Of a DNA stretch of 64,000 bases, positions 509 through 53,229 are shown one piece after another; positions within the stretch are counted from its first letter, which is position 1, and each line of letters begins with the position of its first letter. Source of the DNA: an uncultured Planctomycetota bacterium (lineage in GTDB: Bacteria > Planctomycetota > PLA2 > JAEUHO01). Made by a program: the position numbers and the translations under genes. The notes beneath the pieces were generated by a model. The model was not told the origin of the DNA. It worked only from the letters and a program-made list of their open reading frames with translations, and searched no databases. Location: NCBI GenBank assembly GCA_963752285.1, contig CAVVXN010000001.1, positions 1 through 64,000 on the forward strand, in the 5' to 3' direction.

Positions 509-557
509 TGGAGCGCCCGATCGGGTTCGAACCGACGACATTCAGCTTGGGAAGCTG
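509..557 (-). repeat. 3' 49 nt of tRNA-Gly(CCC), att core copy 1
   Basis: Minus strand reads CAGC-TTCCCAA-GCTG...GGTTCGAACC...GCGCTCCA: anticodon arm, T arm and CCA end. The 5' half of the tRNA is absent. Confidence 0.9.
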
Positions 558-710
558 CGCGCCCCCCATCGCAAGTCACGCACCCGCCCAAGGTTACGAC
601 GCTCGCCAGAAGCCGTTGAGACCTGGGTTGAGACGAGCCGAAAGGCCCGCTTGTGACGGCCTCTGGTCCTTGCTCCGGCGGGCCGCGGCAGGTGCAGCAG
701 CAGCCCGCGC

Positions 711-7554: not shown

Positions 7555-7811
7555 AACGAAACCGCTCCGCGGTAGCCCAGAGCCGAGCATGCGAGCGTGG
7601 TCGGGCGCTCACCTGATCTTCTCTGCTGCGCCCATTCGATCCGGTACGTGTGCGCGGCGTCGCGCGGCATTCTGGGTTCCAAGCCGTTTGCACGCCGAGA
7701 GCGATCTTCGCTGGCATCAAGATGCCGAATTCGGGAAATAGGGGGCCCCTCTCTCCCATCTAGACCTGGCACCGGGAGCACCACCTCCCGACGCCGCAGA
7801 AAGGAGCCCCC

Positions 7812-8660: not shown

Positions 8661-8667
8661 GGTCGTC

Positions 8668-9867: not shown

Positions 9868-10215
9868 ACCGCCGACGAACGCCTCATCGGCCGACCTGCC
9901 GAACGGACGCCACAGGGCGCACCGCACGTCCCACTGCGGCCCCGTGGGCTGGATCCCGCCGCCTATGTACCTCCAGCGCGCCGCTTCGCACAGCGAGGAT
10001 CCCGAATTCAGCCTGCGTAGAGCTGCGCGCCTCTAGGCGAGAGACCATCCTCCGTGCCGATGGCCCCTCGCACATCTGCTGCGACCACGACGAACCCCCA
10101 TAGCCCCAGCGCGGCTTCGCTCAACCAGCTTCTTCCGCACATGGTCGGCAAGGTACGCCTCGCTCACACACGGGCGGTCTCCGTCACGCCGACCACATGC
10201 GGAAGAAGCCTATGC

Positions 10216-10643
10216 GTTGTCGTCCCAGCTGTGGGTGACGCCGCCGACGGAGGTGTACTGGTTCAGGGTGTTGGTGCTGTAGCTGGTCGTCGTCGCGGAC
10301 TGTCCGTACGGGGTCACCACGACGGAAGTCCTGTTCCCGTCGTCGTCGTAGTTGTACTCGATCTTCTTCGTGTAGGCCGCCCCGCTCGGGCTGTCGGGCG
10401 ATGCCGAGCCCATCCAGGCGACCGTCAAGCGCCGGGCCTTGTCGTACTCGAAGGCGTCCCCGGAGGAGCCCGAGGCCCCGTAGCGCTCGTAGACCCGGTC
10501 GTGGACGTCGTTGTAGGCGTAGTCGAGCCTGACGATCGTCGAGGGGCTCGAGGTCTCGTGGTCGATGCTCGTGACCTCCTCCCGGAACCCGCCGTACGTG
10601 TTCGCCTGCGTCGTTCCGTTCTGGAAGGTCGTACCCTTGGGCC
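10216..10643 (-). pseudogene. Rhs family B internal fragment (upstream part of 6345-7554)
   Basis: Near-identical to 19290-19716. Confidence 0.85.
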
Positions 10644-10799
10644 GCGTGGTCGACTTCCACGCGCTTCGGACGACGTTCGTGTCCTGGCTCGCGATGAACG
10701 GCGCCCACCCCCGGGTCGCCCAGGCCCTCGCGCGCCACGCCTCCGTCGAGACGACCATGGCGCGGTACACGGACCTCGCGCTGGTGGATCTGCGGGGGG
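10639..10799 (+). pseudogene. Tyrosine integrase C-terminal fragment
   Basis: GRVVDFHALRTTFVSWLAMNGAHPRVAQALARH, copy of 21508-21668. Confidence 0.85.
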
Positions 10800-17969: not shown

Positions 17970-20575
17970 TCAGAGAGGAGGTCCGTCGAAGTAGTTTCCC
18001 TCACTGCCATTACGTGGCAAAGCTCCATCCACTTTGACCATATGCGTGCTAGGATTCTCGGTGCAAGGATAAGAGGCTGGGGGTGCGTGGTCGCATGGCA
18101 CTTTCCAGGCGTGGCTCACCCTCTTCTGGAAGTTCTCCCAATGCTTCTCCACCCACGAATTGTGACCGTCGTGCGAGACCCATTCCCATCCATTGCTCTC
18201 GAGATACATGGCGGCGAGCTCCAAGCCGAAGTCAGCGACGGTGATCCACGCGTTCACCTTGAAGAAGGTACGAGCGCCGGTTTCAAGCGCCTCTTCCCCA
18301 AGAGTCGAGTAGAGGGTCACTTCTGCCTTCGTCGTAGCGAACTCCCAACAAGCACCAGCGACCGAGATGTGGTGCGAGTACCAGGCCCCTATGCGACCCA
18401 GGGCCGTGCGCTCATGCGTACCGTACTGGTAGTCAGATGTGTACAGGTAATAGACTATGTCCCACTCAGCGAAAATCTCCACAACCCAGCACATGTCCGC
18501 ATCCTGCGTCCGGGGATCTCGGCTGGAGCTACTTGGATCTGCCGAGCCCCCCCCGCAGGCGCCATTGGTAGTCGCCACGGGGCAAACCGCGTATCGAGTC
18601 GTCTCAACGTGCTGGCGCGATATCTCCGTCCTGCCGATGTCATTCAGGCCCAGCGGATCGCGCCGGACAATGGGGCTAGCCGAAGCGTATTGGTAGAGGT
18701 TGGCGCCGGCCACGGCTCCCATCGCGTCCCTACCGAGGAACCCCCCGCGCGCAGGCGAATACACCCGAGTGCGGTAGTAGTATGCGCCCGTCTCCTCGTC
18801 AAGCAAGCGTCCCGCATAGGTCCAGTGCTGCCCCAGCGGATCCACCGACCGCGTCTGCCCGCCCCGCGTGATCGTGACGGTCCCGTACGGATCGTAGCGG
18901 TACGACACCGCCGTCGCCTCGTTCATGTCCGTGATCGCCATCACGGAGCCGAGCGCGTTCTTGTGGTAGAAGGACCGCGTCGTCTCGCTCGTGTTCTGGT
19001 CCGAGTCGAAGTCGAGCACGTCCGCCTGCTCGAGCATCAGGACGTTGTCGATCCCCTGCCCGAAGACGAAGTCCTGCTTCCACGTGTTCGACCCGTCGTA
19101 GGTCGCGATCGTCTCCACGCCCGCGTAGACGTACCGCTCGGTCGCGCCGCCCGTCACGGCCTTCTCCACCCGTCGGCCCAGCGCGTCGTACTTGTAGGTC
19201 GCCACCGTCGTGCCGCCGTTCTTGACCCGGCAGATCTCATTACGGTAGTTGTACTCGTACGTCAAGGTCCCGTCGTCGGACAGGTTCCCGTTGTAGTCCC
19301 AGCTGTGGGTGGCGCCGCCGACGGAGGTGTACTGGTTCAGGGTGTTGGTGCTGTAGCTGGTCGTCGTCGCGGACTGTCCGTACGGGGTCACCACGACGGA
19401 AGTCCTGTTCCCGTCGTCGTCGTAGTTGTACTCGATCTTCTTCGTGTAGGCCGCCCCGCTCGGGCTGTCGGGCGATGCCGAGCCCATCCAGGCGACCGTC
19501 AAGCGCCGGGCCTTGTCGTACTCGAAGGCGTCCCCGGAGGAGCCCGAGGCCCCGTAGCGCTCGTAGACCCGGTCGTGGACGTCGTTGTAGGCGTAGTCGA
19601 GCCTGACGATCGTCGAGGGGCTCGAGGTCTCGTGGTCGATGCTCGTGACCTCCTCCCGGAACCCGCCGTACGTGTTCGCCTGCGTCGTTCCGTTCTGGAA
19701 GGTCGTACCCTTGGGCCTCGTCCCGATATAGGTGAAGGACGCGATGGTGTTCGTGCCGTCCGAAATCGAGGAGAGGGCGCCGACATCGTTGTAGCTCTCG
19801 GCAAGCGCGCGGCCGGAGGGGTAGGTCAATGTCTTCAAGTTCCCGACCTCGTTGTAGGTGCTCGTGACGGTCTTCGTGTACGCCGTCCCCGATGCGTACT
19901 CCTGGGCCTCCGTGTAGACGGTCGAGTCGAGCCCCCGGACCCCGTACGTGAAGTCCACCGTGTAGTCGTTGTTCTCGGCCTCCGTCAGGCGATTCAACGC
20001 GTCGTAGGAGTAGGACTCCGAGGTCGTCCCGATGAACGACCCTGCCCGCGTGATGTTCCGAGCCGTCATCCGATTCAGGTTGTCGAACGTGTCCTCGATG
20101 TCGTTCCCAGCCGCGTCGACCGTCTCGACCACGTCGTCTGTCGCGTCGTGCGTGTACGTGATGTAGGTCGAGTCCGGGTAGGTCATCGTCGCGGCGCGGT
20201 CGAGCGCGTCGTACGTCCAGGTCGTCTCGTGGCTCGCGTCGTCCTTGAAGGACACGAGCCGGTCATTGTCGTCGAATCCCCACTGGGTCACGATCGCGCT
20301 CGTGAACGTCTCGATCGGATCGCCGTACGCGAGCGCGACCTCCTTCTTCGTCATCCGGCCGAGGCCGTCGAAGGTGAAGCGCGTCGGGTTCCCCTCCGCG
20401 TTCACCGTCCACACGAGGTTCGACCGGCTGTCGCGCCCGTACGTGGTCTCGAGCTCGTGCTCCCCGTCCAGGCGGTCGATCTCGGTCCGGGTGGCCATGC
20501 GGTTCAGCACATCGTACGTCGCCTCGTACTGGTGCGTCACGCTCGACTCGCCGTCGATCTCCGTGCGCGTCCTGA
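17970..20575 (-). pseudogene. Rhs family B, N-terminally truncated, unique CT
   Basis: About 860 codons of YD repeats, core and CT. GAYYYRTRVY and DPLGL motifs. Confidence 0.85.
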
Positions 20576-20869
20576 CCCTCGCCGCCTCTACGACTCGTCG
20601 GATGGGTCGCCCGACGCCATCGCCGTCGAAGTCGACCAGATCCTCGCGACCGGCTACCTGCGCCTCCGCGACGCCGCCGCCCTCGCCCACGCGGAGACCG
20701 CCTCCGGACGCTCCCCCGCACGGGGCGCCAGGGCCATCCACGGCGCCGCCCGGAGGGGGCAGCTGGGGTCCGGAGCCGCCGGCAGATCCCAAGAACTGGC
20801 CCCGGGCGGGGGGGAGGAATGACCTTGAGAGCGTCGCGAGCCCGAGCCCTTGTGTGAGCAAGGCCGGGG

Positions 20870-21769
20870 ACGGTCAAGGACCTCGACCTCACGAAGGCCA
20901 GCGCGAGGCTCACGGCCGTCCGCGACACGGGCGTCGGCGCCCGGACCGTGAACCGACACCGCGCCGCGATCCGACAGTTCGGCACCTGGCTCGTTCGGAC
21001 CCGCCGCGTCGCGTTCGACCCCTTCGAGGGGCTCAAGGCCCTGAACGAGGAGGCGGACCGGCGCCACGTCCGCCGCGCACTCAAGCCCGAGGAGGCCGAA
21101 CGGCTGCTCGACGGCGCCCGGCGCCGGCCCCTCGCGAAGGCCCAGGCCGAGCGGATCCACGCCGGCGTGACGCCCCGGGAGCGCCTGCGCCTGACCCGGC
21201 TCGGCGAGATCCGCGCGCTCGTCTACGCCGTCGCGCTCGTGACCGGGCTTCGGCGCGGGGAGATCCAGCGCCTTCGCTGGTTGGACGTGGACCTCGACCG
21301 CGGGCGGGTGACGGTCAGGGCCTCGTCGGCGAAGTCGAGGCGAGAGCAGGTCGTGCCGCTCCACAGCGGGCTTGTGGCGACGCTCGCCTCGTGCCGCCCC
21401 GTCGGCGCGTCCCCGACCGACCTCGTGGTGCCCGCGGGCGCGTTCCCCTCGATCCGCACGTTCTGGGCGGACCTCGAGGCGGCGAAGATCGCGCGAGAGG
21501 ACGACGAGGGCCGCGTGGTCGACTTCCACGCGCTCCGGACGACGTTCGTCTCCTGGCTCGCGATGAACGGCGCCCACCCCCGGGTCGCCCAGGCCCTCGC
21601 GCGCCACGCCTCCGTCGAGACGACCATGGAGCGGTACACGGACCTCGCGCTGGTGGATCTGCGGGGGAGCGTGGAGCGCCTCCCGCTCCCGGAGGTTTCG
21701 AAGCGGCGCGGGCGGCCCGTGAAGGCCCTCCGCACCTGGGACCGCCGGGGCGGGCGCGCCGGGGGGTAG
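20870..21769 (+). pseudogene. Tyrosine integrase C-terminal ~300 codons (N-terminal part at 34863-35205)
   Basis: TGLRRGEI, DFHALRTTF, ARH and RYT catalytic motifs. Adjacent to an att site. Lacks its own N-terminus. Confidence 0.9.
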
Positions 21770-22083
21770 GGCGCGCGGAGCGGGCGTGGGGGGCGCCCGG
21801 GGCGGACGGGCGGACGTCGTACCCAGGCCGCGGAGGAGGCGCCCGTCCGCGCCCACGTCGCGGGCGTCGCGGGGTCGAGCTCGGTGGCGTGCCGGCGATT
21901 GACTCTCTCGCGAAGCCGACTCGAAAAGCTGCGTGACTTGGGTCGCCAGTTGAGACGGTCTCCTGACGCTTCCTTGCGCTTCGCTGCACGATGTAAGGAA
22001 GCGCGGCGGCTTCGGCTCGCTTCGAGAGAGTCGCCGTAACGGTGCGACGACGCGCGAGTTGCGGCGAGGAGGCGCAACGAGGA

Positions 22084-22132
22084 TGGAGCGCCCGATCGGG
22101 TTCGAACCGACGACATTCAGCTTGGGAAGCTG
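22084..22132 (-). repeat. 3' 49 nt of tRNA-Gly(CCC), att core copy 2
   Basis: Identical to 509-557. Confidence 0.9.
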
Positions 22133-22385
22133 ACGCTCGCAAGTCGTAAGTCGCGCACGGTCCACGCTTTACGGATCTTGAGGATGGCCACTGTGACGGA
22201 TTTTGTCGAAACGCCCGAGATCGACCTGCTACGGCCCCCTCCACGTCGTTCTGCGCGTTTCGGAAGTTGAGAATGGGTCGGCGGCGCCACGTCGGCCGAC
22301 AGGCGCCGCGGCGCGGGCGCTGCCGCCACCAACGGGGCCGATCCGTCCTGTGCCTCACCGCGGCGCGCGGCCGCGCCGCCCCGGT

Positions 22386-22426
22386 GCCGAGTACTCGGTG
22401 GAATCCTCCAGAAGGAACTGACACGC
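22386..22426 (+). repeat. ~45-bp cassette-boundary / IS-end motif
   Basis: GCCGAGTACTCGGTGGAATCCTCCAGAAGGAACTGACACGCA. Confidence 0.8.
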
Positions 22427-22467
22427 AGCATTGGTCGCGACAGGATTGGAGCACCGCGCACGCAAAA

Positions 22468-23961
22468 TCAGGGGCAGGAGCTGACTGCCAAGAGCCGTTG
22501 CAGTTCCTCTCTCAAATCGGCCGGCAGGAGGTCTCCTCTAACCATCCTCTCCAGTTCCATCCTGCCTCGATTGAGGTCCGCGTTCAGGACCTCAGCCATC
22601 TCCATGCGCACATGGTTGGGCAGTCCTCTATCCAGCACACGACCTGCGACAACTGCCGCCCCATCCTCATAGAGGTATACCAGTCGCCGACCCGAGACCA
22701 TCCGCACTACTCGGAAGTTGTCTTCGAGCCGCGCGACCAGCACGCGTCGCAGGGAGTCCTTCGGCAAGTGGGCTGGTATGAGCTTGGTCAGCGCATCCAC
22801 AACTACCTTGGGCTCCTCGCGGTCTCCAACCTCCGCATCTAATCTCGCCATCACGGCCGCTTGCACTTGCAGGTCACGATCTCCAAGGAGATAATCAATC
22901 GCACCTGTAACAACGTTCTCTGCTGCGATCCCATGAGCCTTCGGTAGCCATTCCAGGAGCATTGCTCGACACTCCGGATCTGGGCCCTGGGCGTGTAGGC
23001 ACCGTTGCCTTACCGCCAAGGACGCATCTATTCGCTCGTCCTCGTCTCCTCCCCCCAGGGCATCACCGACCCTCGACCAAGCCACGCCCGGGATCCGATC
23101 TTCTGTGGCCCGCCAGAGAAGTCTTGCGCGGATTTCCGCATACTCCACGGGGAGCGCATCTGCATCTGTTGCGCTCACTTGGAGCCACGGAAGCTCCTCC
23201 ATGATCTGCTCGCGGACTGCCCCCCCTCTCCTTGCGAGATCCGCCATCGCAGCCAGGAGGCCGCTTGCTACCGCGCCGCCCCGTACGCTCCGCCGAGTCG
23301 AGAGCCACGTCAGTGCGCGGCACTGACGGGACTTCGCTTCGCGAAGCATACTCGCCACTCCGACCGCCTGATCCTCCATGAGGTCAAGGCAGATCCAGTC
23401 CTGAAAATCCGCGGCCGCTTCCCCCGCCTCCTTCCATCTCTCGGGCGCTATACGGCCCACGAGCCACCTCAATCGGGCGCCCCGCTCCTCAAATCCTCTC
23501 CACGCTACGTTTGACCCCGTGAGGATGGAGAGCGCCTTGAGTGCGTGATGTGCATCCAGTTTCCCGCTCCCCGCTAGCGCTCCCGCGATCTTCTCCATGA
23601 GATCCCAGATCCGACCATCCACGTATCCTTCCTCTGGTCCGAATTCGGCTTGGCCTTGGAGCAGGACCCCCAACCTATGGAGGGCGAGCGGGTGCTCCGC
23701 CACTGGACCAATCAGAGCCGGATACAGCCCCTCGAGTTGTGGCAGCAGGGCGTTCCTCGGCCCCGGTGCGCGCGCGCGGTCTCCGCAACCGGCACCGAGC
23801 AGGGTCATCGCAAGCAGCCAGCAGCATCCCCTACTTCGCCCAGAACCGTTGGATAGCACCTGCGGTCGCAGCGTCCATTTCTGATACGACCAACCAAGGC
23901 TGCCGGACATGCTCCCTCCCATTTGCGTGGGCTCCTTCGCCACCGCTGCGAATCGCCTCAA
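22468..23961 (-). CDS. Putative immunity lipoprotein, helical/HEAT-like
   Basis: Lipobox-like LLAMTLLGAGC. Directly downstream of full-length Rhs 1. Start uncertain. Confidence 0.65.
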   Translation of the reverse strand: MRRFAAVAKEPTQMGGSMSGSLGWSYQKWTLRPQVLSNGSGRSRGCCWLLAMTLLGAGCGDRARAPGPRNALLPQLEGLYPALIGPVAEHPLALHRLGVLLQGQAEFGPEEGYVDGRIWDLMEKIAGALAGSGKLDAHHALKALSILTGSNVAWRGFEERGARLRWLVGRIAPERWKEAGEAAADFQDWICLDLMEDQAVGVASMLREAKSRQCRALTWLSTRRSVRGGAVASGLLAAMADLARRGGAVREQIMEELPWLQVSATDADALPVEYAEIRARLLWRATEDRIPGVAWSRVGDALGGGDEDERIDASLAVRQRCLHAQGPDPECRAMLLEWLPKAHGIAAENVVTGAIDYLLGDRDLQVQAAVMARLDAEVGDREEPKVVVDALTKLIPAHLPKDSLRRVLVARLEDNFRVVRMVSGRRLVYLYEDGAAVVAGRVLDRGLPNHVRMEMAEVLNADLNRGRMELERMVRGDLLPADLREELQRLLAVSSCP

Positions 23962-23996
23962 ACGCGCTGGTTACATGACTCGAAACGGGAGTCGGG

Positions 23997-26900
23997 TTAT
24001 TTCACCTTATGCCTGTTCGCTGCGTCCCGTACTTTCTGCTTTGCCTTCTCGCCTTCGGGTCTCTGCCACCTCTGGGCAGTTCCGGCATCCGGATAGTTCC
24101 CTGTATCCGGATCGGGGGGAGGCGTAGGCCCCACGAGGCGGTCTCCCTCCGGCGTATAGTCATCCGGGTGTGGGTTCACCGATCGCCCTGGACCCAGATC
24201 GCTGGCGCTGATGCAACAAGCGAAGACTACGACGAACTGAAAATTGGGACCGCATCCGACGAGGTCGCGCACGCGCCGGTACCCCGTCTTGCTGTAGTCA
24301 TTGTCTCCACATTGGACCTCCCCACTATTATTCCCATGAGCAGCAATAATCAAACCGCCGTACTTGTCAGGGTTCTGCTCCATCTCCTCCAAGAGTTTCT
24401 TCAGTTTCTCCTCGGCCTCCTTGTTGCGCTTGTCGCGTTCCGCATCCTCGGCCTTCACTCGCTCGCGGTACTCCTCATCGCTCTCTCCGGATCTCTGCTC
24501 CGGGGTTGGGGCCCGCCCCGACTCAAACTCCACTACATCCTCATCCCTGACCTCGTACCCAGCATCCTCTGCCGCCTGCTCAATCCCATCAACAACGTCG
24601 TTGAACTCGTCGTTCGCCGGTTGGGTATCTCCATGTGTGAAGTCGCCCGGCCTCGTGTCCCGTATTACCGCGACACGCGGCTTGTCTCCCTTCCCATCCT
24701 CTGAGCCCCAACCAGACGCGTCTCTATATGTCGTGGGGCGACTCCGAACATACTGGTGCAGGCCAAGATCATCGATGTAGCCGAGTGGGTCTCTCTGCAA
24801 GAACCTCCCCTTCCCCGGGTCGTACGTCCTCGCCCGATAGAAGTAGAGCCCGTCCTCCGCGTCGTACTCCCGCCCCGTGAACAGGAAGGGGTTCCCGACC
24901 GGGCTCAGTGAGACGACGTTCCCCTGCGGGTCGAGGATCGCGGGCTTCCCGTACACGTCGTAGGTCGCCCACTCGACGACGCTCCCGCCGGGCTCCGAGA
25001 TCTCGGTCACCGACCCAAGCGCCTGCTGGTGGTACGTGAAGCGGAGCACCTCGGTCGTGTTCTGGTTCCCGTTCACGTCGGCCTGGTCAGCCCGGTCCAT
25101 GACCCGCGGCCGGTCGATCCCGTCCTCGTAGACGTAGCGCGCCTGCCAGACGTCCTGCCCGTCGTACTCCTCGATCACCTGCTGGGCGTCCAGCACGTAC
25201 CGCGTCGTCGCCCCGCCCGACACGGCCTTCTCGACCCGCCGTCCGATCGCGTCGTAGCGGTAAGTGGCAATGAGCGCCTGCGTCGCTTTGAGCTTCACCT
25301 CGACCAGCCGGTTCTCGAAGTCGTACGCGAAGAGGTAGGTCCCGTCGTCGGTCAGGTTCCCGTTGTTGTCGTGCGTCCGGGTGACGCCGCCGACCTGGGT
25401 GTACTGGTTCACCACGTCCGAAGCGTACGTCACGGTCGAGGGCGGGGTCGGCGGGGTCGTGAGCGTCTGGCTCCGGTTCCCGAGCCCGTCCAGCACGTAC
25501 TGGGCGTTCTTGGCGAAGGCCTGGCTCCCCGGGTTCTGGACCTCCTGGAGGGGATTCGTCGTGTCGTAGCGGACGTCCGTCAGGCGGTACGCCCAGTCGT
25601 AGGCGTAGACGTCCCCCTTGGTGTTGCGGGCCGCGAGGAAGGTCTGGACGGCCTGCGGAAGGGTCCCGACCCAGGTGGCGTCGAACGTGTTCTGCTCCAT
25701 CCGCCGGTTGTGGGCCCGATCGTAGGCGTAGGTGAACTTGTGGAGCGTCTGCCCGCTTCCGAGCTTGTGGTCGATGTCCTGGATCCGGGCGAAGCCGTCC
25801 CAGGCGTACTCGGTCGAGGTCCCGTTCTGGTTCGAGGTCGTCGCGAGCCGGCCCGCACCCTGGTACGTGAACGTCGCGATGTTCGTCCCCGCCCCCACGT
25901 CCTGGAGCGCGGTCATGCGGTAGATCGCGTCCCGCGTGTGGGCGGCCGCGAAGGCGCTCGGGTAGAGGACGCTCTGCACACTCGAGGCGTCCGACCACGT
26001 CGTCGTGACCGACTTCCACTTCTCCTGACCCTGGGCGTTGTAGCCCTGGCGCTCCTTCAAGAGGTTCCCCACGCTGTCCCAGGTGAGCTCGACCTGGAAG
26101 TCGTCATCGACGGCGGTGAGCGCCCTCCCGAGGACGTCGTAGGTGAACTGCTCGAACGTGCTCCCGAGGACCCCCGTCCCACGCGTCACGCTCGCATACG
26201 TCTTCCGGTCGAGCGCGTCGAAGGTGTTCTGGACGACCGTCCCGTTCTGATCGGTCCACTGCGACACGTTCGAGGCCGGGTCGTACTGGGTGTCGACGTA
26301 CCGCGTGTCCGCGTACGTGACGCGGGTCTGGCGATCTCGCGCGTCGAACTGATACGACGTCGAATCGAAGTTGTCGTCGGTCAGGCCCGTCAATCGATCA
26401 TTGCCGTCGTACTGGAAGCTCTCCGTGATCGACTGCGTGAAGTCCTCGATCGTCTGGCCGGTCTGGAGCGCACGCTCGTAGGTGAGGAGCCGGCTTGCGA
26501 GGTCGTATGTCCACCGGACCGGATGGGACTCGGCATCCAGCCGCCACGTCAGGTCGTTTCGGCTGTCGTAGCCGAGATTCGTCGTGAGAACGTTCTGGCC
26601 GTTCGACCGATCGATCTCGCGCCTCTGGGTCACGCGATTGATCGCATCGTAGTCGAACTCGGTCACGAACGTCTCGCTCCCGCCCCCGGCCGGGAGGTCG
26701 GTGTGGGAGCGGGTCGTGACGTTCCCGTTCGCGTCGAGGGAGAAGTCGTCGTGGTCGCCCATCGCGTCGAGGACCTGGACGAGGCGTGCCGCGGCGTCGA
26801 GCGAGTAGCTCGTGCTGTTCGAGAGGGGATCCGTTACTTGCGTCACGAGCCCGGTCGGGTCCCTCGTGATGATCGTCGTCGGCTGGCTCGGCGTCAGGTT

Positions 26901-29900
26901 CGGGCCGAAGCGGTCGTCGACCGTCTTCCAGAGCCGGTCCACCTCGTCGAAGTAACGCGTCGTCCGCGCGAGGAGCGCCGCCTGGCTGTCGTAGGCCTCG
27001 ACCAGCGTCTGGTTCCCCGACTTGTCGTATTGAAACGCCCGGTACGCGCCGAGGGCGTCCGTGACGCGCGTTCGACGGTCGAACAGGTCGTGATCGTACG
27101 TGGTCTCGTACGAGCGCGGGTTCTTCGAGGTCGCGAGCGAGCCGTTCAAATCGTAGGCGTACTCGATGGTCCCCTCGACCGCGCTCCCGGCTCCGAGGTG
27201 GACCTTGAAGGGGAGGTGGCGCTCGTCCCACTCGTAGCTCGTGACCCCGCCCTCGGGCTTCGTCACGGAGATGACTTCGCCGCTTCCGTCGTAGGCCCAG
27301 GTCGTGGTCGCCGTCGTGCTCGCGGTCAGGTCCACGGCCCTCGTGAGCATCCGCCCCACGATGTCGTAGGTGAACGACGTGTCGATCCACGGCGTCGTCG
27401 GGTCCTGGGTCCCGTGCCGATCGAGGTTCTCCAACTCGACGAGCGTCACCCGACGATCGGCGTCGTACGTGAGTCTGCGGCGGTAGGAGAGGGGCGACGG
27501 CGCCTGGACCTCCGTCACGTAGCCCTCCGCGTCGACGGATATGGCGGTCGTCGCCCCGCGCGCGTCCGTCACCGACACGACGTCCCCGTACTGGCTGTAG
27601 TCGAGCGTGGTCGTGAGCGCGAGCCCGGCTTGGTCCTTCGTCACCGACTGGAGGTAGCCGGCGTGGGACCCGGTCGTGTAGTACGAGAAGTCGACCGTCC
27701 GGCCGGCGCCGTCGGTCGCATTCGTGATCCGGCCCCGGCCGTCGAAGGAGAACGTCTCGGTGATCGTCTGCGTGCTCGGGCTCGTCACCGTGGGGCGCTG
27801 GATCTGCGTCGTGTTGCCCTGGGCGTCGACCTGGTAGACGGTGACGTTCCCCCGCGGGTCCGTGTACTGCGTCCGCTGGTTGTAGGGCCCGTACTGGTAG
27901 GAATGGACGATGTCCGTCCCCGAGTTGTTCGGAGTGTTCGTCTCCTTCCGCCGGAGCTCCGAGAGGTTCAGGGCGGCGTCATAGCGGTAGTCGACCCTGT
28001 TGCCGGCCGGGAACGCCGCGTACCGGATGAGGCCGGTCGTCTGGTCGACCCCGAACGTGGTGACGTACGACGTCGGCTCCCCCTGCCTGAGCCCCTTCGT
28101 GAAGACCTCCTCCTTGATCGGCACGCCGAACGTCGAGAAGGTCCACTCGACCGTGTTCCCGGAACGGTCCACGACCGCCGTCTTCGTGTCCGACCCGCCA
28201 AGGGCCGTATAGCTCATCGTGTAGGAGCCGTCTCCGATCGTCTCGCCGACGACACGGTCGTACCCGTCGTAGTAGAGCGTCTCTACCTTGTCCCCCGTGG
28301 GGCTCCAGACGTGCACCAGGTTGTGCGCCAGCGTCGGGTTCGTGTTGTTGCCCGTGTAGGAGAACCACACGGAGCGGCCCTGCGGGAACTGGGTCGAGCT
28401 CGGGGTCGTCACGCGCTTCAACTGCCCCAGGTAGTCGTACGTGAGGGTCCAGGTCCGCCCCCCGAAGTCCGTGATGCTCGAGAGGCGACCATCCGTCCCG
28501 TAGGACAGCGTGTAGCTCCGGTTGAGCGTGTCGGTCACCCCGGTCAGCTGGTCTCCGCTCCAGGTGTAGGAGAGGGCGTTCCCGTAGCGGTCCTGGACCT
28601 GCGTCCGGTAACCGTTCAGGAACGTGCTCGTCGTGCCAAATCGTGTCACGAGGGTCGACGTCTGCCCCTGGACGCCGAGAGTCGAGTCGTACTGCGGCGG
28701 CGGCACGAAGCTCCCGTTTCCCGCCAGCACGAACCGGTCGGCGCGGCCCCGGCCGTTCAAGTACGTCTGGTCCCCGTTCGTCTCCGCCCGGGTCCTCACG
28801 TCCTGGTTCAGCGTCCAGCCCTTCCCGTACCGGTAGTCGTAGCCGATGCGGGAGTGGTAGGTGAGCGTGAACTCTGCATCGAGCCCCACACCGGGCACGC
28901 CAAAGAGCGGGAGCGAGTAGACCTCCTCGGCGGTCGCGAACTCGACGCTCCCCTCGGTGGCCGGCGGCCACGCGTCGTTCGGAAGGTACTGGGGATCGGG
29001 ATAGCCCGAGAGCCCGCCTCGACCGAAACCCTCGCCGTCGAGGCACGAGCCGCAGCGGCTGGGGGTCGTGGACTGGACCCCCGAGGAGCTCGTCTGGACG
29101 AGCCCCGTCCCCGTCCCCGTGATCGTCGGGCTCGCTCCGGGGTTCCAGAGCACGTTGTCGAGGATGGAACGCCCCGACTCGCCCGCGGCGCTCGACCCCG
29201 TGTTCGCCACGAGCACGTAGAGGTCCTCGAAGCTCCCGGCCGGGTCGATCCACGACGACCCGCCCCCGGCCGGCGGCATGTTGGGCTCGATGTTGATCCA
29301 GCCGACCTGAAGGACGTTGGCGGGGTCGGCCGCGTCGAAGTAGTAGGCGTCGGTCCCGCCGGTGAGCCCCGGACAGAAGACGGTCAGGAACTGCCCGGCC
29401 GACGTCACGTCCGAGGCCCCCACGGCCGGTCCCGTCCAGACGGGCGGCGCCGTGAACGTGAAGAAGGCCCCGGTGTAGGGGAGCTGGAGCAGATAGGCCA
29501 TCCCCGTGACCGCGTCCGTCGCGGAGACGTAGGCCTCGTTGTCCAGGCTCGTGATGCCGGTGGGCACGGCCGGCGGCGGCCCCCAGGTCGGAAACGACGC
29601 GGGCGTCATGGCCGTCCGGTCGAAGAACGACACACCCACGAACCCGGGACCCGTACGGCCGAGGAGCATCAGATAGCGGGTCGCGGGGTTGCCGCTCGGC
29701 CTCACCTCGATCAGCTCGGTCGCCGTGGCGAAGGGGATGGCGGTCGCCGGAGCGAACACCCCGCCCACGAGGAACTGGTCGAGCCAGGCGCGGTTTCGGT
29801 CGTAGCCCCACGCGTAGAGCGCGCCTCCGAGCAGGTTGTCGGCCGTGATCTGGCTGTAGTTGGCCGCGGGGTTGCTGAGGGAGAGCGTCGCCACGCCGGT

Positions 29901-30302
29901 GGCGGGGTCGACGGTCCAGACCTGCCCGTTGTTGCAGCCGACGACGAGCTGCTGGAGCGAGACCGACCAGTCCATGTCCATGCAGGTGTTGGGCGGGATC
30001 GGGAGCGTCAGGGTCCCGGTCGAGAGGTTCGCCTTCGGGTCGACGACCGTCACGGTCGAGTTCCCGCTGTTCAGGACGTAGGCGGCGCTCCCGTCGGCAA
30101 GCGTCACCGTGTCCACCGGGTTCGGCCCCGTCGGAATCCCCTGGGCCAAGGCACCCGGCAGGTGCCCCACGAGGAGCACGACCAGGACGAGCCCCACGAT
30201 CTCGGGCCATCTCCCCCGGATCTCGGGGAGCGTCGCGGCCAACCCCCTCTCCTCGATCCGACGCGGCCGGCGGACGTTCTCGCTCCGGCTCTTCTTCGAC
30301 AC
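23997..30302 (-). CDS. Full-length Rhs/YD-repeat polymorphic toxin 1 (signal peptide, YVTN-like propeller, DUF6531-like region, Rhs core, caspase-like CT)
   Basis: GTG start by analogy to 44085. Continuous YD repeats. RFLQRDPLG...DASG, then a CT with IIAAHG and VVFAC. Confidence 0.9.
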   Translation of the reverse strand: MSKKSRSENVRRPRRIEERGLAATLPEIRGRWPEIVGLVLVVLLVGHLPGALAQGIPTGPNPVDTVTLADGSAAYVLNSGNSTVTVVDPKANLSTGTLTLPIPPNTCMDMDWSVSLQQLVVGCNNGQVWTVDPATGVATLSLSNPAANYSQITADNLLGGALYAWGYDRNRAWLDQFLVGGVFAPATAIPFATATELIEVRPSGNPATRYLMLLGRTGPGFVGVSFFDRTAMTPASFPTWGPPPAVPTGITSLDNEAYVSATDAVTGMAYLLQLPYTGAFFTFTAPPVWTGPAVGASDVTSAGQFLTVFCPGLTGGTDAYYFDAADPANVLQVGWINIEPNMPPAGGGSSWIDPAGSFEDLYVLVANTGSSAAGESGRSILDNVLWNPGASPTITGTGTGLVQTSSSGVQSTTPSRCGSCLDGEGFGRGGLSGYPDPQYLPNDAWPPATEGSVEFATAEEVYSLPLFGVPGVGLDAEFTLTYHSRIGYDYRYGKGWTLNQDVRTRAETNGDQTYLNGRGRADRFVLAGNGSFVPPPQYDSTLGVQGQTSTLVTRFGTTSTFLNGYRTQVQDRYGNALSYTWSGDQLTGVTDTLNRSYTLSYGTDGRLSSITDFGGRTWTLTYDYLGQLKRVTTPSSTQFPQGRSVWFSYTGNNTNPTLAHNLVHVWSPTGDKVETLYYDGYDRVVGETIGDGSYTMSYTALGGSDTKTAVVDRSGNTVEWTFSTFGVPIKEEVFTKGLRQGEPTSYVTTFGVDQTTGLIRYAAFPAGNRVDYRYDAALNLSELRRKETNTPNNSGTDIVHSYQYGPYNQRTQYTDPRGNVTVYQVDAQGNTTQIQRPTVTSPSTQTITETFSFDGRGRITNATDGAGRTVDFSYYTTGSHAGYLQSVTKDQAGLALTTTLDYSQYGDVVSVTDARGATTAISVDAEGYVTEVQAPSPLSYRRRLTYDADRRVTLVELENLDRHGTQDPTTPWIDTSFTYDIVGRMLTRAVDLTASTTATTTWAYDGSGEVISVTKPEGGVTSYEWDERHLPFKVHLGAGSAVEGTIEYAYDLNGSLATSKNPRSYETTYDHDLFDRRTRVTDALGAYRAFQYDKSGNQTLVEAYDSQAALLARTTRYFDEVDRLWKTVDDRFGPNLTPSQPTTIITRDPTGLVTQVTDPLSNSTSYSLDAAARLVQVLDAMGDHDDFSLDANGNVTTRSHTDLPAGGGSETFVTEFDYDAINRVTQRREIDRSNGQNVLTTNLGYDSRNDLTWRLDAESHPVRWTYDLASRLLTYERALQTGQTIEDFTQSITESFQYDGNDRLTGLTDDNFDSTSYQFDARDRQTRVTYADTRYVDTQYDPASNVSQWTDQNGTVVQNTFDALDRKTYASVTRGTGVLGSTFEQFTYDVLGRALTAVDDDFQVELTWDSVGNLLKERQGYNAQGQEKWKSVTTTWSDASSVQSVLYPSAFAAAHTRDAIYRMTALQDVGAGTNIATFTYQGAGRLATTSNQNGTSTEYAWDGFARIQDIDHKLGSGQTLHKFTYAYDRAHNRRMEQNTFDATWVGTLPQAVQTFLAARNTKGDVYAYDWAYRLTDVRYDTTNPLQEVQNPGSQAFAKNAQYVLDGLGNRSQTLTTPPTPPSTVTYASDVVNQYTQVGGVTRTHDNNGNLTDDGTYLFAYDFENRLVEVKLKATQALIATYRYDAIGRRVEKAVSGGATTRYVLDAQQVIEEYDGQDVWQARYVYEDGIDRPRVMDRADQADVNGNQNTTEVLRFTYHQQALGSVTEISEPGGSVVEWATYDVYGKPAILDPQGNVVSLSPVGNPFLFTGREYDAEDGLYFYRARTYDPGKGRFLQRDPLGYIDDLGLHQYVRSRPTTYRDASGWGSEDGKGDKPRVAVIRDTRPGDFTHGDTQPANDEFNDVVDGIEQAAEDAGYEVRDEDVVEFESGRAPTPEQRSGESDEEYRERVKAEDAERDKRNKEAEEKLKKLLEEMEQNPDKYGGLIIAAHGNNSGEVQCGDNDYSKTGYRRVRDLVGCGPNFQFVVVFACCISASDLGPGRSVNPHPDDYTPEGDRLVGPTPPPDPDTGNYPDAGTAQRWQRPEGEKAKQKVRDAANRHKVK

Positions 30303-30318
30303 GGCCTCCCCCTCTCCC

Positions 30319-31440
30319 CTACCAGGTCGCGTTCGAGATCTGGTTCTTGGCCTGCGTGGCCGTGGCCGCGATCGACGGGTTCGCATTGGCCGCATCTGCG
30401 GACATCGTCGTGAGCCCCGACTTGTCGTGGAGCTGGAGGAGCGCGAGAGCGGCCTCGCGCCGGACCGAGAACGTGGTCGAGCCGAGGAGCGTCTTCAAGG
30501 TCGGCACCACCTGGCTCGAGATGTCCGAGGAGACCCTGCCCGCGATCTTCGCGGCGAGCCCCTGGACCCGCGGATCCGTGTCGCCGAGCAAGAGGAGCAC
30601 GGCGCTCCGGTTCTGGGCCGCGCCCCCGAGGAGCCCCAGGCCCTGGAGCGCCGTCCACCGGACCGTCGCGTCCGCATCCGTGAGCGCCGCCGCGTAGGTC
30701 GAGCCCTGGTTCTTGTCCCCGGTCCGGACCATCGCGGAGAGAGCCCGACTCCGAACCCACGCCTGGCTGTTGCTCGCGAGAGCCGTGAGCTCGCTCAGGG
30801 CCTTGGCCTCTCCGAGCGCGTCGATCGCGTTCTCGCGCTCCGCCCGCGACGCCTTGCTCTCCCGCGCGAGGTCGTAGACGTCGGAGAGCCCGTCGCTCGA
30901 CACGACCGCGAGCGCACGCACGGCGGCGTCCCGGACCGCGCGAGGGGCATTCTCGTCCCCGGCGACCTGCCGGAGGTCGCCGGTCGCGGTGCCACCGGCC
31001 TGCCCGAGGCCCCGCACCGCCACCACGCGGATCGAGGCGAGCTCCTCGGGATCCTGCGCACGGCTCGAAAGCGTGCCAAGCGCGCCGCTCGCATGGCGCG
31101 CGAGGATCCGGACCGCCGCCGCCCGCGTCACCACGTCGTTCGAGGACGCGAGCGAGACGACACCCGTGAGTTGGCTCGTGGAGAGGCTCATCCGCCCGAT
31201 CGCCTCGGCGAGGCCCGCCTTGACGAGCGCCGAGGCGTCGCTGTCGAGGACCTGGAGCAGGTCGTCGAGTCGCGACGGCTCCGAGGCGAGCTGCGCGATC
31301 GTCGCCTCACGCGCGCTCCCGTCGGCGTTCGAGAGCTCGTTCACGAACGACGGCTGCTCCGTCACGTCCGCGAGGAGCCAGGCACCGCCTCCCACGACGA
31401 GCACCACCGCGAGAGGACCCCACCGTCTCGAGGAACGCAT
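30319..31440 (-). CDS. HEAT-repeat protein with N-terminal signal/anchor
   Basis: Repeats such as DADATVRWTALQGLG and DTDPRVQGLAAK. GGGAGG ribosome-binding site upstream. Confidence 0.85.
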   Translation of the reverse strand: MRSSRRWGPLAVVLVVGGGAWLLADVTEQPSFVNELSNADGSAREATIAQLASEPSRLDDLLQVLDSDASALVKAGLAEAIGRMSLSTSQLTGVVSLASSNDVVTRAAAVRILARHASGALGTLSSRAQDPEELASIRVVAVRGLGQAGGTATGDLRQVAGDENAPRAVRDAAVRALAVVSSDGLSDVYDLARESKASRAERENAIDALGEAKALSELTALASNSQAWVRSRALSAMVRTGDKNQGSTYAAALTDADATVRWTALQGLGLLGGAAQNRSAVLLLLGDTDPRVQGLAAKIAGRVSSDISSQVVPTLKTLLGSTTFSVRREAALALLQLHDKSGLTTMSADAANANPSIAATATQAKNQISNATW

Positions 31441-31579
31441 GAGCGCGACCTCCCTTCTCGTACGGCACCATCTCGTCCGAGGGGGAGAGTGGCGCCGCCT
31501 ACGTCACAGCGCAAGTGGGGACCGACCCGATCCATGAGGAATTCGTAGGGGTTGCCACAATCTTGCAGCGCGGCGTTCC

Positions 31580-32458
31580 CTAGCGCGACAGCGTCAGTGT
31601 TGCCTGCTGCGCGCCCGCAACACGCCGCACGCGCACGTCGCCGGTCACCTCGTTTCCAAATGCGGCGAGAGCACGCGAAACGTCCGAGACGGCGTGGTCC
31701 CCGATACGCTCGATCACATCTCCCGGCTTGAGGCCGAGTTGCGCAATCTGGCTCTCTCCGCGAACGCCGGTCACGCGCACACCGGTGACGCGGCCCTCGG
31801 CTCCGTAGAACGGGACGAGCTTCACGTCTCCCGCCGCGCTCGTTCCCGACGCAACCTCAGCGCGGCCAGCGTCTTCCACCGCTTCCGGGGCCGTCCCGCC
31901 TCGCCGCAGAGGCCCGACACCCCGCACGCGGCGATCGATCGGATGGTCGAGGGGCACGACGAACGTGAAGGTCTCCTCGCCTCGTGCGAGCGTGATCAGG
32001 CCTTCGCGGTCCCTCTCCTCGATCCGGCGGATGACGACGCCTTGGTCCGGCCGCCCCTCCGAGACCACGTAGGTCTCGGGGTGCGCGGGGTCCTTCGAGA
32101 CGAGCACCACCGCGTCGGGACCCGCGGGGTCCCGCCACCAGGCCGCGATCTTGTGGGCCGAGAGCGGCAGGGACGTGGCCTGCCCCACGATCACGTCGGC
32201 ATGCCTCGGTGGCTGGCGCTCCGGGAACTCGCACGGCCACCACCGGCTCACCTCCCTCACGAGGTCCGCCCACGCGACGGGGCCCGAGCGAGGCGGGGCC
32301 GCGGGCGGAGGCAGGGCGCGCGCGTCGAGAGCGGCGCCGGTCTCAGGCCTTCCCCCCGCCCCGCCCGCGAGCAGGGCCCACCACGCCCACACGGCCGCGA
32401 CCAGGAGCGCGCCGTTCAGGCGCCAGAGCCAGCGGCGCGCGAGGAACACGCGGAGCAC
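31580..32458 (-). CDS. GspC-like protein: N-terminal TM helix, beta-rich middle domain, C-terminal PDZ
   Basis: WRLNGALLVAAVWAWW TM segment. GVRVTGVRGESQIAQLGLKPGDVIERIG PDZ signature. Confidence 0.75.
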   Translation of the reverse strand: MLRVFLARRWLWRLNGALLVAAVWAWWALLAGGAGGRPETGAALDARALPPPAAPPRSGPVAWADLVREVSRWWPCEFPERQPPRHADVIVGQATSLPLSAHKIAAWWRDPAGPDAVVLVSKDPAHPETYVVSEGRPDQGVVIRRIEERDREGLITLARGEETFTFVVPLDHPIDRRVRGVGPLRRGGTAPEAVEDAGRAEVASGTSAAGDVKLVPFYGAEGRVTGVRVTGVRGESQIAQLGLKPGDVIERIGDHAVSDVSRALAAFGNEVTGDVRVRRVAGAQQATLTLSR

Positions 32459-32614
32459 ACGCCCACGGTAGCGCCGGCGGCTACGAAGGGGAAGGACGGC
32501 TGAACGCGAGCCGAAGACGCGCGGCCCGAGGTCGGGAGGGCGCCGCTCTCGGCTCCGTTCTCCCGCACGCGGCGTCGAGGTCGAGGCGCGCCTGCGTGCG
32601 CGGACCCCGGTAGA

Positions 32615-33700
32615 TCATCCCGCGCTCGCGGCCGAGCCAGCCCCGTACCTCTTCCTCGCGTCGTGGAGCGTCACGCTCTTCCCCGTGGCGTCCTGGAACC
32701 GCCAGAAGCTCCAGCCGTTCGTCGCCATCGGCCGGCCCATGACGCGCTCCCGGACCGCACTCGCGACCTTCGAGGGATTGTCGTAGGTCCGGCCCTCCCA
32801 CTCGATCATGGCGTCCGGGCGTAGCGTGGCCTCGTAGGTCGCGCCCTTGTACCTCCGGTGAAGCGAGAGCGGCGTCGCCACGAACCCGGCCTCGATCAGC
32901 TGCGCCAACGTGACGCTCCTCCCGCTCGGCACGTCCGCGGTGCCTCCGGCATCCGACTTGCCGCCCGGGACGTGTTCGGCCTGGCCCCTACGCACCTTCC
33001 CGAGCGCGGCCTCGTAAGCAGGGTCGTCGAGAATGTCCCGCTTGATCACCTCTGACCGCAGGACCTGGCGGAGCTCTCGCGGCTCGACGCGGATCCCGAT
33101 CACCTTCCGTACCTCGCGCCGCAGCCCCAGGAGGACCTTGCGGTTCTGCAGCAGCAGGGCGGCGACGAGGTGGCGGCTCAACGCCTCCTGCAGATCCCGC
33201 AGTTTGACGTGCGCGCCCTTCTGGCAGCCCTCCTTGCTGAAGGCGTAGAGCCGCTCGATCTGCTGGTCGTCTTTCGGGTCGAGCGCGAGGAGGTCCAGCT
33301 CGGCCACCAGCGTCTTGTCGATCGGCTTCGCGAAGAGGACGCTGTAGAGCTGCCAGGTCACGCCGTTCGTGAGGACCAGCCACTCCACCCCCTCGTTCGA
33401 GGCGTAGCCCAGCGCCTGCTTCAGGTGCCGCTCCTTCAGCGCGAAGCCGATCGCCTTCACCTCGACGAGGTGGGTGATCTTCCCGTCGAGCTTCACGGCC
33501 AGGTCGCAAAACGTCCCCCGGATCGCGTACTCGCCCGTGAGCTCGGTGTACTTGTCGTAGCCCAGGACCTCGCTCAGGACGTCCTTCACGACCGTGACCG
33601 TATCGGCCTCGGACACGTCGCGCGACCGCTGCTGCTCGAGGATCGGACGCAGGCGCTCGAGCCCCGCATCGAACCGCTCGCGGATCTTCTTCGGAACCAT
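32615..33700 (-). CDS. HsdR-N-like PD-(D/E)xK restriction-type nuclease fused to a RAMA-like domain
   Basis: SEADT...LGYD...CDLAVK...LVEVKA...LTNG..W nuclease motifs. C-terminal YDNPSKVA...NGWSFW. Confidence 0.75.
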   Translation of the reverse strand: MVPKKIRERFDAGLERLRPILEQQRSRDVSEADTVTVVKDVLSEVLGYDKYTELTGEYAIRGTFCDLAVKLDGKITHLVEVKAIGFALKERHLKQALGYASNEGVEWLVLTNGVTWQLYSVLFAKPIDKTLVAELDLLALDPKDDQQIERLYAFSKEGCQKGAHVKLRDLQEALSRHLVAALLLQNRKVLLGLRREVRKVIGIRVEPRELRQVLRSEVIKRDILDDPAYEAALGKVRRGQAEHVPGGKSDAGGTADVPSGRSVTLAQLIEAGFVATPLSLHRRYKGATYEATLRPDAMIEWEGRTYDNPSKVASAVRERVMGRPMATNGWSFWRFQDATGKSVTLHDARKRYGAGSAASAG

Positions 33701-33910
33701 GGCCCGACCTCCCGTCGCGTAGAGTCGAGTACTACTGCGGCGCGCGTCTCCCGGTCAACCCCCTCTCCGCCTCGTGAGCCGGGCGCCCCACAAGCCGAAT
33801 CAATCACTTCTGCTTCTTAGTCAATCAGTCCAGCGCGTTCTGATGCCGTTTGATCGGTGGACGCCGCCCGGACCTTGCCACCTTGCGCCCCCGGTGCCCT
33901 ACTTCGGCGC

Positions 33911-34291
33911 GTGGCCAAGCGCCGGACCTGGACGTGGTGGGAGAAGGCCGCCGCCGAGCGGGGCCGGCGCGGCTGGTCCGTCGCCGAGCTCGCCCGCCGC
34001 GCCCACGTGGACGCGACGGCGCTCCGGCGCTGGCTTCGGGGGGAGCACGCGCCCCGGGAGGGGACGGTCGCGAAGATCGCCGCCGCCTTCGGCTGGCCGA
34101 CCGCCTACCTCGCCGACCCCGACCTCCCCTACGAGCCGACGCTCGACAAGGAGGCGGCGGCGAAGGTCGTGTCGGGCCTCTCCCCCGACGCCCTCAAGGT
34201 CGTGAACGCCCTCGCCGACCCCAAGGCCGTCGCCTTCCTCGCACGCTGCGTCGACCAGTTCTACGAGCTGCGGCGGAACCTAGGGCGATGA
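33911..34291 (+). CDS. XRE-family HTH regulator
   Basis: GWSVAELARRAHVDATALRRWLRGEHAP...KIAAAFG. Confidence 0.85.
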   Translation: MAKRRTWTWWEKAAAERGRRGWSVAELARRAHVDATALRRWLRGEHAPREGTVAKIAAAFGWPTAYLADPDLPYEPTLDKEAAAKVVSGLSPDALKVVNALADPKAVAFLARCVDQFYELRRNLGR

Positions 34292-34862
34292 GGGCCCACG
34301 CGACCACCGTATGGGAGCGGAGCGCGAGCACCCTTCGCCTGAGCTTCTCGGTCTTCGTGCGTCCCACGAGAGGGCCTCTCTCCCCCCCATGGCCGGGGCG
34401 GGCGCCCCGGCGGGAGAGCGGCATTCCCTCCCGGGGCATGCGGAGCGTAGCCGCGGGCGCTGCGGGAGGTCACGGCGGCAATGGGGAAGGGACGCGGCGG
34501 GAGTGTCGCACGCGTCGGAAGCGAGGTGGAACGTGACGAAGAGGTCGCATGGAATCTTCCGGCGCGGCACGGTCGCGCTCATGATCCTGGGTTTCGCCGC
34601 CGCTGCGAGCCGGCACGCTGCGGGCGGCGACGGCGCTGTCCGGCGACGGTCGGGTCGCGGTCCCGGGGCAGGGAGGGAACGTGGACAAAGCGCTGGCCCG
34701 GCTTCGCTATGGGCGGCGCGTCGCCTGGACGGGCAAGGGGCGGCGGGGCAACCCCTACCGGTACGCCGCCCTCGGTACGCTGCCGGCGGAGGGGCCGGAC
34801 ACAGCTGCCGACGGGGGGGCCAAGGCCCGCGTGTGGGCGCCGCTCCGGAGAGGGGGTGGGCG

Positions 34863-35205
34863 ATGAGGGTCTACCGCAGGAAGTACAAGGGCCCGGACGG
34901 CGCCGAGAAGCTCGGGAAGACCTACTGGGCGCTCTACTACGTCGGCGGGAAGCGCTTCCACGAGTCGCTCGGCACCCACGACAAGCGGGCGGCCGAGCTC
35001 ATCGCGAACGAACGCCTCCGCCGGGAGGAGCTCCGCCGGGCCGGCATCGAGGACCCGTTCGAACGGAGCCACGAGAAGACGCTCGACGACCACCTCGCGG
35101 ACTTCGAGAAGACGCTCCGGGCCCGCGGCGTCGTCTCACGCTACGTGGCCGACCGGCTGAAGTGCCTGCGGGACTTCTTCGCCGGGGCCGGCGCCCGGAC
35201 GGTCA
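34863..35205 (+). pseudogene. Tyrosine integrase N-terminal ~114 codons
   Basis: MRVYRRK...YWALYYVGGKRFHESLGTHDKRAAE...TLDDHLADF arm-binding/core-binding region, with RBS. Truncated at an ISAzo13 remnant. Confidence 0.8.
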
Positions 35206-35668
35206 CGCGCACTGATCGCAGGACCGCGACGCGACAGCTCGGTCGCCAGTACCCGCGTGCTCTTGCACGTCCAGCGCAGACGGGACATTGGGTCGCCGCG
35301 CGTGCTCGGCTCGATCAGGTCCTCCAACCGGTTGGCGAGCGAGGGATCCAGGTCCCGTGCACGCTTGCGCCCGCCCCCGGGTCGTCGAATGCGGCCTTCT
35401 TCGAGCGCGACACCGTCCTCCACGTCCCGGATGCCGCGCGAGACCGTCGAGCGGGAGACCTTCGTGGCTCGCACAACCGCGGCGATCCCGCCGCGACCCA
35501 GCGCCAAGGCCTCGGCCGCAGCGAAGATGCGCTGGCTGCGCTCATCCAGCACGGCGCGCAGCATGCGGTAGCGCGCTCGAACGGCCTTGACGTCGTCGCT
35601 CGCGGTCACGCCCCATGAGATCGGATCTGCCGAGCGATTGCTTCAGTTATTTCGTAGCAGGCCCTTAG
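35206..35668 (-). mobile_element. ISAzo13-family remnant (left end and transposase N-terminus, 35609 downward)
   Basis: LDERSQRIFAAAEA..LGRGGI...RIRRPGGGRK...RGDPMSRLRWTCKSTR. Confidence 0.85.
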
Positions 35669-35689
35669 GGCGCTGGCGTATCCGAGCGT

Positions 35690-36019
35690 CCCGCCGCCCA
35701 CCGCGGCGACGCGCGAGCTCGGCGCATCGCCGAGAACCGAGCACGACGATGCGTCGTCTGCGCCTGACCCCGCCTCGTTCCTTGACACCCCCGACGCGCC
35801 CCTACGGTCCGGCACCCACGTGCGCACTGCGCTCACGCGGACCGTAGCCCCGATCTCACACCGGCCGGCTGCCGAGACCTCGCGGCGGCACCGCTTTCCC
35901 GCCAGCAGGCCGCCGAGAACTCGAACGAAACGTCCCCTTCGAACTGAGAAGCAGCAGGGAAACCCGCCGCGTCGCTGTTCGAGTACTCGACAGAATTCTC
36001 CAGAAGGAATTGACACGCA
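35690..36019 (+). repeat. Transposase tail, downstream flank and ~45-bp boundary motif (35977-36019)
   Basis: Homologous to 740-1029. Confidence 0.75.
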
Positions 36020-53100: not shown

Positions 53101-53229
53101 GAGCTGGTGGAGAGCATTGGCGGCCGTATCCACTATGACGACATCGACATGTCCGTGCACACTGGGACGATCTACGTCCACGGAGAACAAGACTTCGACA
53201 TCGTCCTTCCTGAGTTTCAGGCGCCTCCG

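Follow-up and report, generated by a model that had tools for sequence, protein, structure and literature searches.

A tyrosine-integrase gene (int) lies in two pieces in an uncultured planctomycete, with the N-terminal half downstream of the C-terminal half, in the first 64 kb of contig C1 (CAVVXN010000001.1, positions 1 to 64,000; the window) of a five-contig genome assembly (GCA_963752285.1, 89% complete). We consider it likely that the two halves are stumps of two neighbouring decayed integrative elements at a tRNA-Gly(CCC) gene, in which separate deletions ended at nearly the same codon by chance; the locus is probably one of ordinary decay. The initial annotation had offered two accounts of the stretch between the halves: one circle that had used its own int gene as the integration site, giving a locked element or switch, or adjacent tandem copies with breaks at roughly one position. 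The second is supported by a tandem array, by the identities of both flanks and by other short-homology junctions, whereas the first fails because the flanks do not rejoin into one target holding the repeat. The array itself, the order of its units, what each flank consists of and the many further short-homology junctions are shown below.

The N-half, residues 1–114 (34863–35205, forward strand), is the stump of the integrase of what we call the middle unit, and the sole N-half found in the assembly. The C-half, residues 113–411 (20868–21769, forward strand), was identified by a PF00589 match, alignment and motifs, and is likely the int stump of the unit to the left. The 3′ end of the N-half is GGACGGTCA (35197–35205), and the identical 9-mer opens the C-half (20868–20876). 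When the halves were aligned as separate rows against full-length homologues, the N-half filled columns 1–115 and the C-half began at column 114; the two share T113–V114 and jointly make 411 aa with neither gap nor duplication, bearing out the earlier proposal that they overlap by 9 bp and join in frame to about 410 aa. Both halves are 79–80% identical to the best homologue, P0001 (412 aa), and the named homologues come from Planctomycetota. The motif residues of tyrosine recombinases have an established catalytic role, and the joined protein carries all of them, as had been claimed, with the motifs containing R240, K267, H332, R335, H358 and Y368 all in the C-half. The window had been said to hold no intact copy, and across the whole assembly we likewise found neither a whole copy of this integrase nor a second N-half.

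Circularizing 20868–35205 would indeed give an in-frame integrase beside an attachment (att) site, so the geometry in the initial annotation is correct. This geometry is not diagnostic, however, because it arises whenever adjacent tandem units are broken at one and the same codon. The 9-mer GGACGGTCA has only two copies within the window and 98 genome-wide, and lies outside the att core. The 9-nt ‘repeat’ is likely integrase sequence retained by both stumps, and not a target duplication.

The tandem array is anchored by an intact tRNA-Gly(CCC) gene at C1:64538–64613, just beyond the end of the window. Alignment of att sites identified six extra copies of the tRNA 3′ end, at 539, 22114, 52576, 55723, 60472 and C3:15156, all in the same orientation and all with conserved sequence on either side. 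Contig overlaps found by assembly comparison stretch the array to about 90 kb, a path that holds 15 Rhs core ends plus one partial. Units are ordered as arm, Rhs cargo, regulator, int, arm and att (‘arm’ being the usual name for the conserved flanks of the core recognized by tyrosine integrases). A sister unit on contig C2 reads Rhs, HEAT, conserved gene, int stump and att, which places int at the right end of a unit, before its own att site. Stumps of int stand beside the att sites of units at 1–153, 10639–10798, 20868–21769 and 34863–35205, and the units between the cores at 52576, 55723 and 60472 and the tRNA gene keep both att sites with no int match.

Stumps of the same integrase break at other points too, equivalent to 21315, 21508 and 21667 of the C-half, the last of these being an end. 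The stump and att site at 1–583 (forward strand) are the same locus as C2:8489–9069, with the stump starting at the equivalent of 21315. The internal stump at 10639–10798 (forward strand) is equivalent to 21508–21667 and has a second-type Rhs gene on its left and IS66-like DNA on its right; here a second copy of the left unit’s Rhs type is likewise joined to an int stump (10215–10798). At least 11 junctions in the array have both parents present in the genome, with about 1–10 nt of shared bases. No intact cognate integrase was found in the assembly. No conjugation or mobilization genes were identified in the array, and because no search was aimed at a transfer origin (oriT) or relaxase, we file the locus as a tandem integrative array and not as an integrative mobilizable element (IME).

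To the left of the C-half lies the remainder of the left unit. Its 5′-truncated Rhs gene, of the second type (17970–20565, reverse strand), has a TIGR03696 match, and 18808–20565 is 94.7% identical to C5:307499–305739, the match ending at 20565. It is followed by the remnant of a small gene and a leader (20566–20867, forward strand) that resembles leaders preceding DUF2924-like genes in intact relatives and has a deletion junction at its right end. When up to three mismatches were allowed, a 22-nt motif at 20847–20868 was found in this genome and in the relative G012 but in no other of 40 genomes and in none of the controls; in G012 it precedes the closest intact integrase by 1343 nt and shares its strand. 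This placement suggests that a deletion within the left unit made the left junction and that the C-half is likely the stump of that unit’s own int. Comparable leaders occur in two further relatives, 945 nt before int in G001 and ahead of PF11149 genes in G011. DNA and protein searches of the relatives with the flanks otherwise gave mostly weak chance matches, G011 carrying the sole true homologue of the left-flank small gene. Metagenome pattern scans for the leader gave 0 matches and then 45, none with int or DUF2924-like matches. Reading the left flank as the continuation of the insertion sequence (IS) on the right was rejected: it rested on a chance ‘ALL’ in one frame, found no match to 14 IS loci and is contradicted by the IS continuation described below.

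On the right, the N-half abuts the 5′ part and left end of an ISAzo13 transposase gene (35204–35664, reverse strand; PF07592 positions 2–41 of 308), cut at the junction. This is the sole PF07592 match in the genome; the IS end region matches C5:502396–502459, up to 35665. Beyond it comes the left arm of the next unit (35684–35882, forward strand), 89.5% identical to 735–934, which follows the core at 539. The IS had inserted into this arm, and the att core expected before the arm is missing. In sequencing run X2, which has a small share of the genome’s sequence and in which 24 of 39 pieces were at least 99% alike, one contig overlaps the IS from 35204 onwards and extends it in frame with VVAELLHDLG, typical of named family members. 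This continuation has only CA in common with the 9-mer and differs from the left flank. Because a post-att arm directly follows the IS, one deletion, from about int codon 114 through the arm and att site into the IS, accounts for the right junction. With an element leader on the left and a cut IS with a different native continuation on the right, the two flanks never formed one target. A target-site duplication made by an outward-facing transposon was discarded as an explanation: neither flank is an IS end, and the cut in the IS lies within its gene.

Together, these flanks suggest how two separate losses probably produced the split. Elements of this family would have entered one by one at the tRNA-derived att core through ordinary tyrosine-integrase recombination. 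A stretch of about 1.7 kb, between the leader’s end and about int codon 112–114, would then have been deleted from the left unit. From the middle unit, an estimated 2.3 kb would have gone: int beyond about codon 114, the unit’s arm, the att core and, within the arm of the next unit, the 3′ part of the ISAzo13 element. Deletion at short repeats is the probable route of both losses.

Several observations weigh against such independent decay. It needs a coincidence, with two independent breaks falling within 9 nt of one another, for which the chance is about 1.5% for one adjacent pair and about 9% for any of 3 × 2 breaks in the integrase gene; because the locus was picked for its coincidence from a very large scan, these odds are not small. 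A short homologue, P0006 (309 aa, on a 1.1-kb contig), likewise becomes non-homologous just before residue 114, its match starting at that residue after 10 unrelated residues; a frameshift, an artefact of the contig or one more break at this codon may be the reason. The native continuation of the IS comes from the single X2 contig. Further, the leader may have supplied up to 7 of the 9 nt as microhomology, leaving a true overlap of 0–9 nt with which a single cut in one gene copy remains compatible. Finally, the heptamer GACGGTC has only three occurrences in int and its arm, each of them at or just before the start of a stump (20868 and the equivalents of 21315 and 21960). Two of the five other int and arm breaks have this 7-mer in common with the split site (P = 0.008 if the site is taken as given and 0.03 if it is drawn at random), and pure chance explains these breaks poorly.

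This last pattern, together with conservation of the arm copy in relatives, would fit the same tandem anatomy with breaks that coincide through cutting or stalling at GACGGTC, by the integrase at a relaxed site or by an element nuclease. We regard this as unlikely: GACGGTC is a common word (0.53 per kb) that was singled out in hindsight, none of 22 donor sides at other junctions carries it, the stump in the relative G033 breaks elsewhere, and every break at the motif also has a short match in its partner. An extension of this idea seems similarly doubtful, namely that breakage at GACGGTC inactivates the integrase at a fixed codon in neighbouring units and freezes the Rhs array, while the 9-nt repeat permits rare release of a circle carrying attP and an intact integrase; such a system would be a two-copy bacterial counterpart of the suicidal integrases of archaea. 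If the preference were true, it would offer a route to freezing and reviving such arrays. The exact complementarity of the halves would require no coincidence at all if an excised circle of the middle element had been opened once inside int and its ends captured by illegitimate joining, replacing about 4 kb of array (the left unit’s DUF2924–int–att segment and the 3′ part of the IS); the true overlap may then be zero, if the left flank gave GGACGGT and the IS gave CA. Such a capture would, however, require both ends to have stayed unresected and to have landed in an exactly int-syntenic context, with a leader on the left and a post-att arm on the right of the same strand. The circle would also have carried attP and kilobases of homology to the array and yet have needed illegitimate joining, and Ku, a potential protector of opened ends, was not found in this incomplete genome, so that we hold the capture to be quite improbable.

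An assembly error in a repeat-rich metagenome bin is very unlikely, although the setting invites one: the array lies at the ends of three contigs, the assembly branches nearby (C1:1–7607 equals C2:8489–16111 at 99.2%, and C3:1–4052 equals C2:1–4052), and nothing bridges 20868 or 35205 among the records listed. Five DNA sequencing runs, each with a small share of the genome’s sequence, and no RNA run were among those listed. Both junctions nevertheless join assembly-unique sequence over no more than nine shared bases, which is too few for an assembler to join on, and each is biologically sensible on its own. A contig of run X1 matches 20536–20618 without difference across the junction at 20565 (with 30 letters on the left, one short of our bridging rule), and a junction of the type at 16375 is present in two runs. 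The join of 35205 to 20877 that a circle would create was absent among the matches listed in four of the five runs, a result that weighs neither way, coverage of 20500–21010 being nil in two. Least probable is integration of one circle by a single conservative crossover through the 9-bp site in its own int, the suicidal mode of SSV-type integrases. It would explain the exact permuted geometry and the whole joined frame, but its flanks would have to restore a single target, which they do not, and the 9-mer is absent from the IS; moreover, the family uses the tRNA 3′ end as its att core, which lies outside int, 315 nt beyond it, and relatives keep the gene whole at the split codon.

The relatives show what an undamaged copy looks like. 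In both G001 and G012, a whole integrase gene is followed by the arm and the tRNA end, and 93 of the 120 homologues listed are at least 385 aa long. Among 34 N-half matches in 39 other genomes, none was seen with this N/C split: 21 run into a C-half (within 30 nt in 17 and within 300 nt in 4), and 13 leave it open, one being distant without a C-half among the matches listed and 12 not cross-checked. A programmed split would be expected to recur, and its absence from these matches counts against one. A comparable Rhs array exists in genome G033, where one unit keeps a nearly complete int and the following unit has a stump that breaks at about residue 175. Several copies of the tRNA-Gly(CCC) 3′ end were observed in four other genomes of the family, at G033:C28 (L126, L127), G009:C4 (L125), G037:C468 (L128) and G038:C53 (L129). 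Together with the Rhs–HEAT–int units of G033, these multiple tRNA ends point to tRNA-Gly(CCC) as a family-wide stacking site.

Integrative elements that accumulate in tandem at tRNA genes and then decay have been described for arrays of IMEs or integrative and conjugative elements (ICEs) with cis-mobilizable elements (CIMEs), as reviewed in PMC5704250. As in those arrays, the elements here are stacked at one tRNA 3′ end, internal att sites are chimeric with two arms, and units without an integrase keep their att sites; we observe an intact tRNA gene with repeated 3′ ends, a tyrosine integrase beside att, and decayed units that have lost int and retain both att sites. This locus differs from those arrays in its Planctomycetota host, its Rhs cargo, its unusually many units and its heavy internal deletion.

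In archaeal SSV-type integrases (for example pT26-2 and SSV1; PMC7253208), int(N) and int(C) likewise stand at opposite ends of the element’s genes, the tyrosine is in int(C) and circularization rebuilds the gene. There, attP lies inside int and matches a tRNA 3′ end (51 bp in pT26-2), the flanks rejoin into a tRNA gene, and such type I integrases are described as restricted to archaea to date. By contrast, att is here separate and downstream of int, the 9-nt overlap is unrelated to the tRNA and the flanks do not rejoin. Thus, of five SSV-type features, we find one, the int split to opposite ends, and not the other four: attP inside int, a terminal repeat equal to attB, flanks that rejoin and relatives split at the same place. 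Among the entries listed by our literature searches, integrases split on integration were described for archaea and none for Planctomycetota, which is no proof of their absence from print.

The cargo resembles polymorphic toxin loci with stand-alone Rhs cassettes, which, as described in PMC3482391, also have many Rhs core ends with varied tips, few full-length genes and many short cassettes. Unlike those loci, the cassettes here are partitioned by tRNA-derived att sites and integrase stumps, and their toxin and immunity roles are putative. The junctions, with few shared bases and loss of the intervening DNA, are like RecA-independent deletions between short direct repeats as described in PMC5426353 and PMC3411829; in distinction to those deletions, the events here are deduced from one assembly. 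The locus gives a large example, from an uncultured planctomycete, of Rhs cassettes arrayed at a tRNA gene. It is also a cautionary case: a stump and a stub that belong to successive units of a tandem array together mimic a circularly permuted element, and asking whether the flanks rejoin separates tandem stumps from true circular permutation.

Between the left and middle units, the att site comprises an integrase-side arm (21947–22083, forward strand), conserved across array units with matches in G001 and G012; the core (22084–22138, reverse strand), the 3′ 55 nt of tRNA-Gly(CCC), matching the intact tRNA at C1:64538–64613; and the left arm of the middle unit (22139–22303, forward strand), of the same type as the arms after the cores at 52576, 55723 and 60472. 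The core begins 315 nt past the int stop, a layout shared by G001 and G012. The initial annotation had singled out an attP-like site with both arms. Conserved sequence does flank the core on both sides, but the array has six internal junctions of this kind, among which the site at 22.1 kb does not stand out; it has two arms because two tandem units meet there. An arm motif with the inverted repeat GAGAC-G-GTCTC (21947–21970 and other att arms) is kept across arm types and partly in G001, and is probably a protein-binding site. A likeness of GACGGTCA to the half-sites of the att core, inspected by eye, was dropped, as the predicted cut positions misfit the breaks.

Next to this site lies a putative immunity gene (22468–23961, reverse strand), so called by position, with no Pfam or NCBIfam match. 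It is followed by a full-length Rhs/YD protein of 2132 aa (23997–30395, reverse strand; PF05593, PF20148 and TIGR03696), a HEAT-repeat protein (30319–31440, reverse strand; PF13646), a conserved, possibly PDZ-like element gene (31580–32458, reverse strand), a restriction-like protein with HSDR_N_2 and RAMA domains (32615–33700, reverse strand; PF13588 and PF18755) and an XRE-type regulator (33857–34291, forward strand; PF01381). Family matches thus confirm the Rhs, HEAT, nuclease and XRE genes that had been named for this stretch, whereas the PDZ assignment corresponds to a weak match to NF041515 (GspC_delta; E = 1e−9) below the cut-off, and the immunity gene to position only. Sister copies of the conserved gene are present on C1, C2 and C3 and in G033. 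The description of the span as one complete element could not be confirmed, with no replication or primase family among the open reading frames scanned from it, whereas the intact relative in G001 has a primase/DUF3987 gene.

Elsewhere in the array, the units of 3–5 kb between the att cores at 52576, 55723 and 60472 and the tRNA gene (52500–64613) each carry an Rhs core end and tip without an integrase, and 53224–55745 and 62068–64590 are about 90% alike. These short units look like att-bounded cassettes that might be moved by an integrase supplied in trans. At 47308, an att site has had its tRNA-derived core largely deleted through a 4-nt microhomology joining both arms. A 2.66-kb insertion in an Rhs gene (7555–10214), flanked by a 5-nt repeat, encodes a tyrosine recombinase (PF00589 and PF13495) and an IS91-type Y2 transposase. 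Contigs C1 and C2 diverge 53 nt inside this insertion (C1:7607, C2:16111), as would arise from a strain mixture, a rearrangement or an assembly branch. Further Rhs loci of the same families lie at C1:820–835 kb, C2:568–574 kb and C5:305–317 kb and are possible sequence donors to the array.

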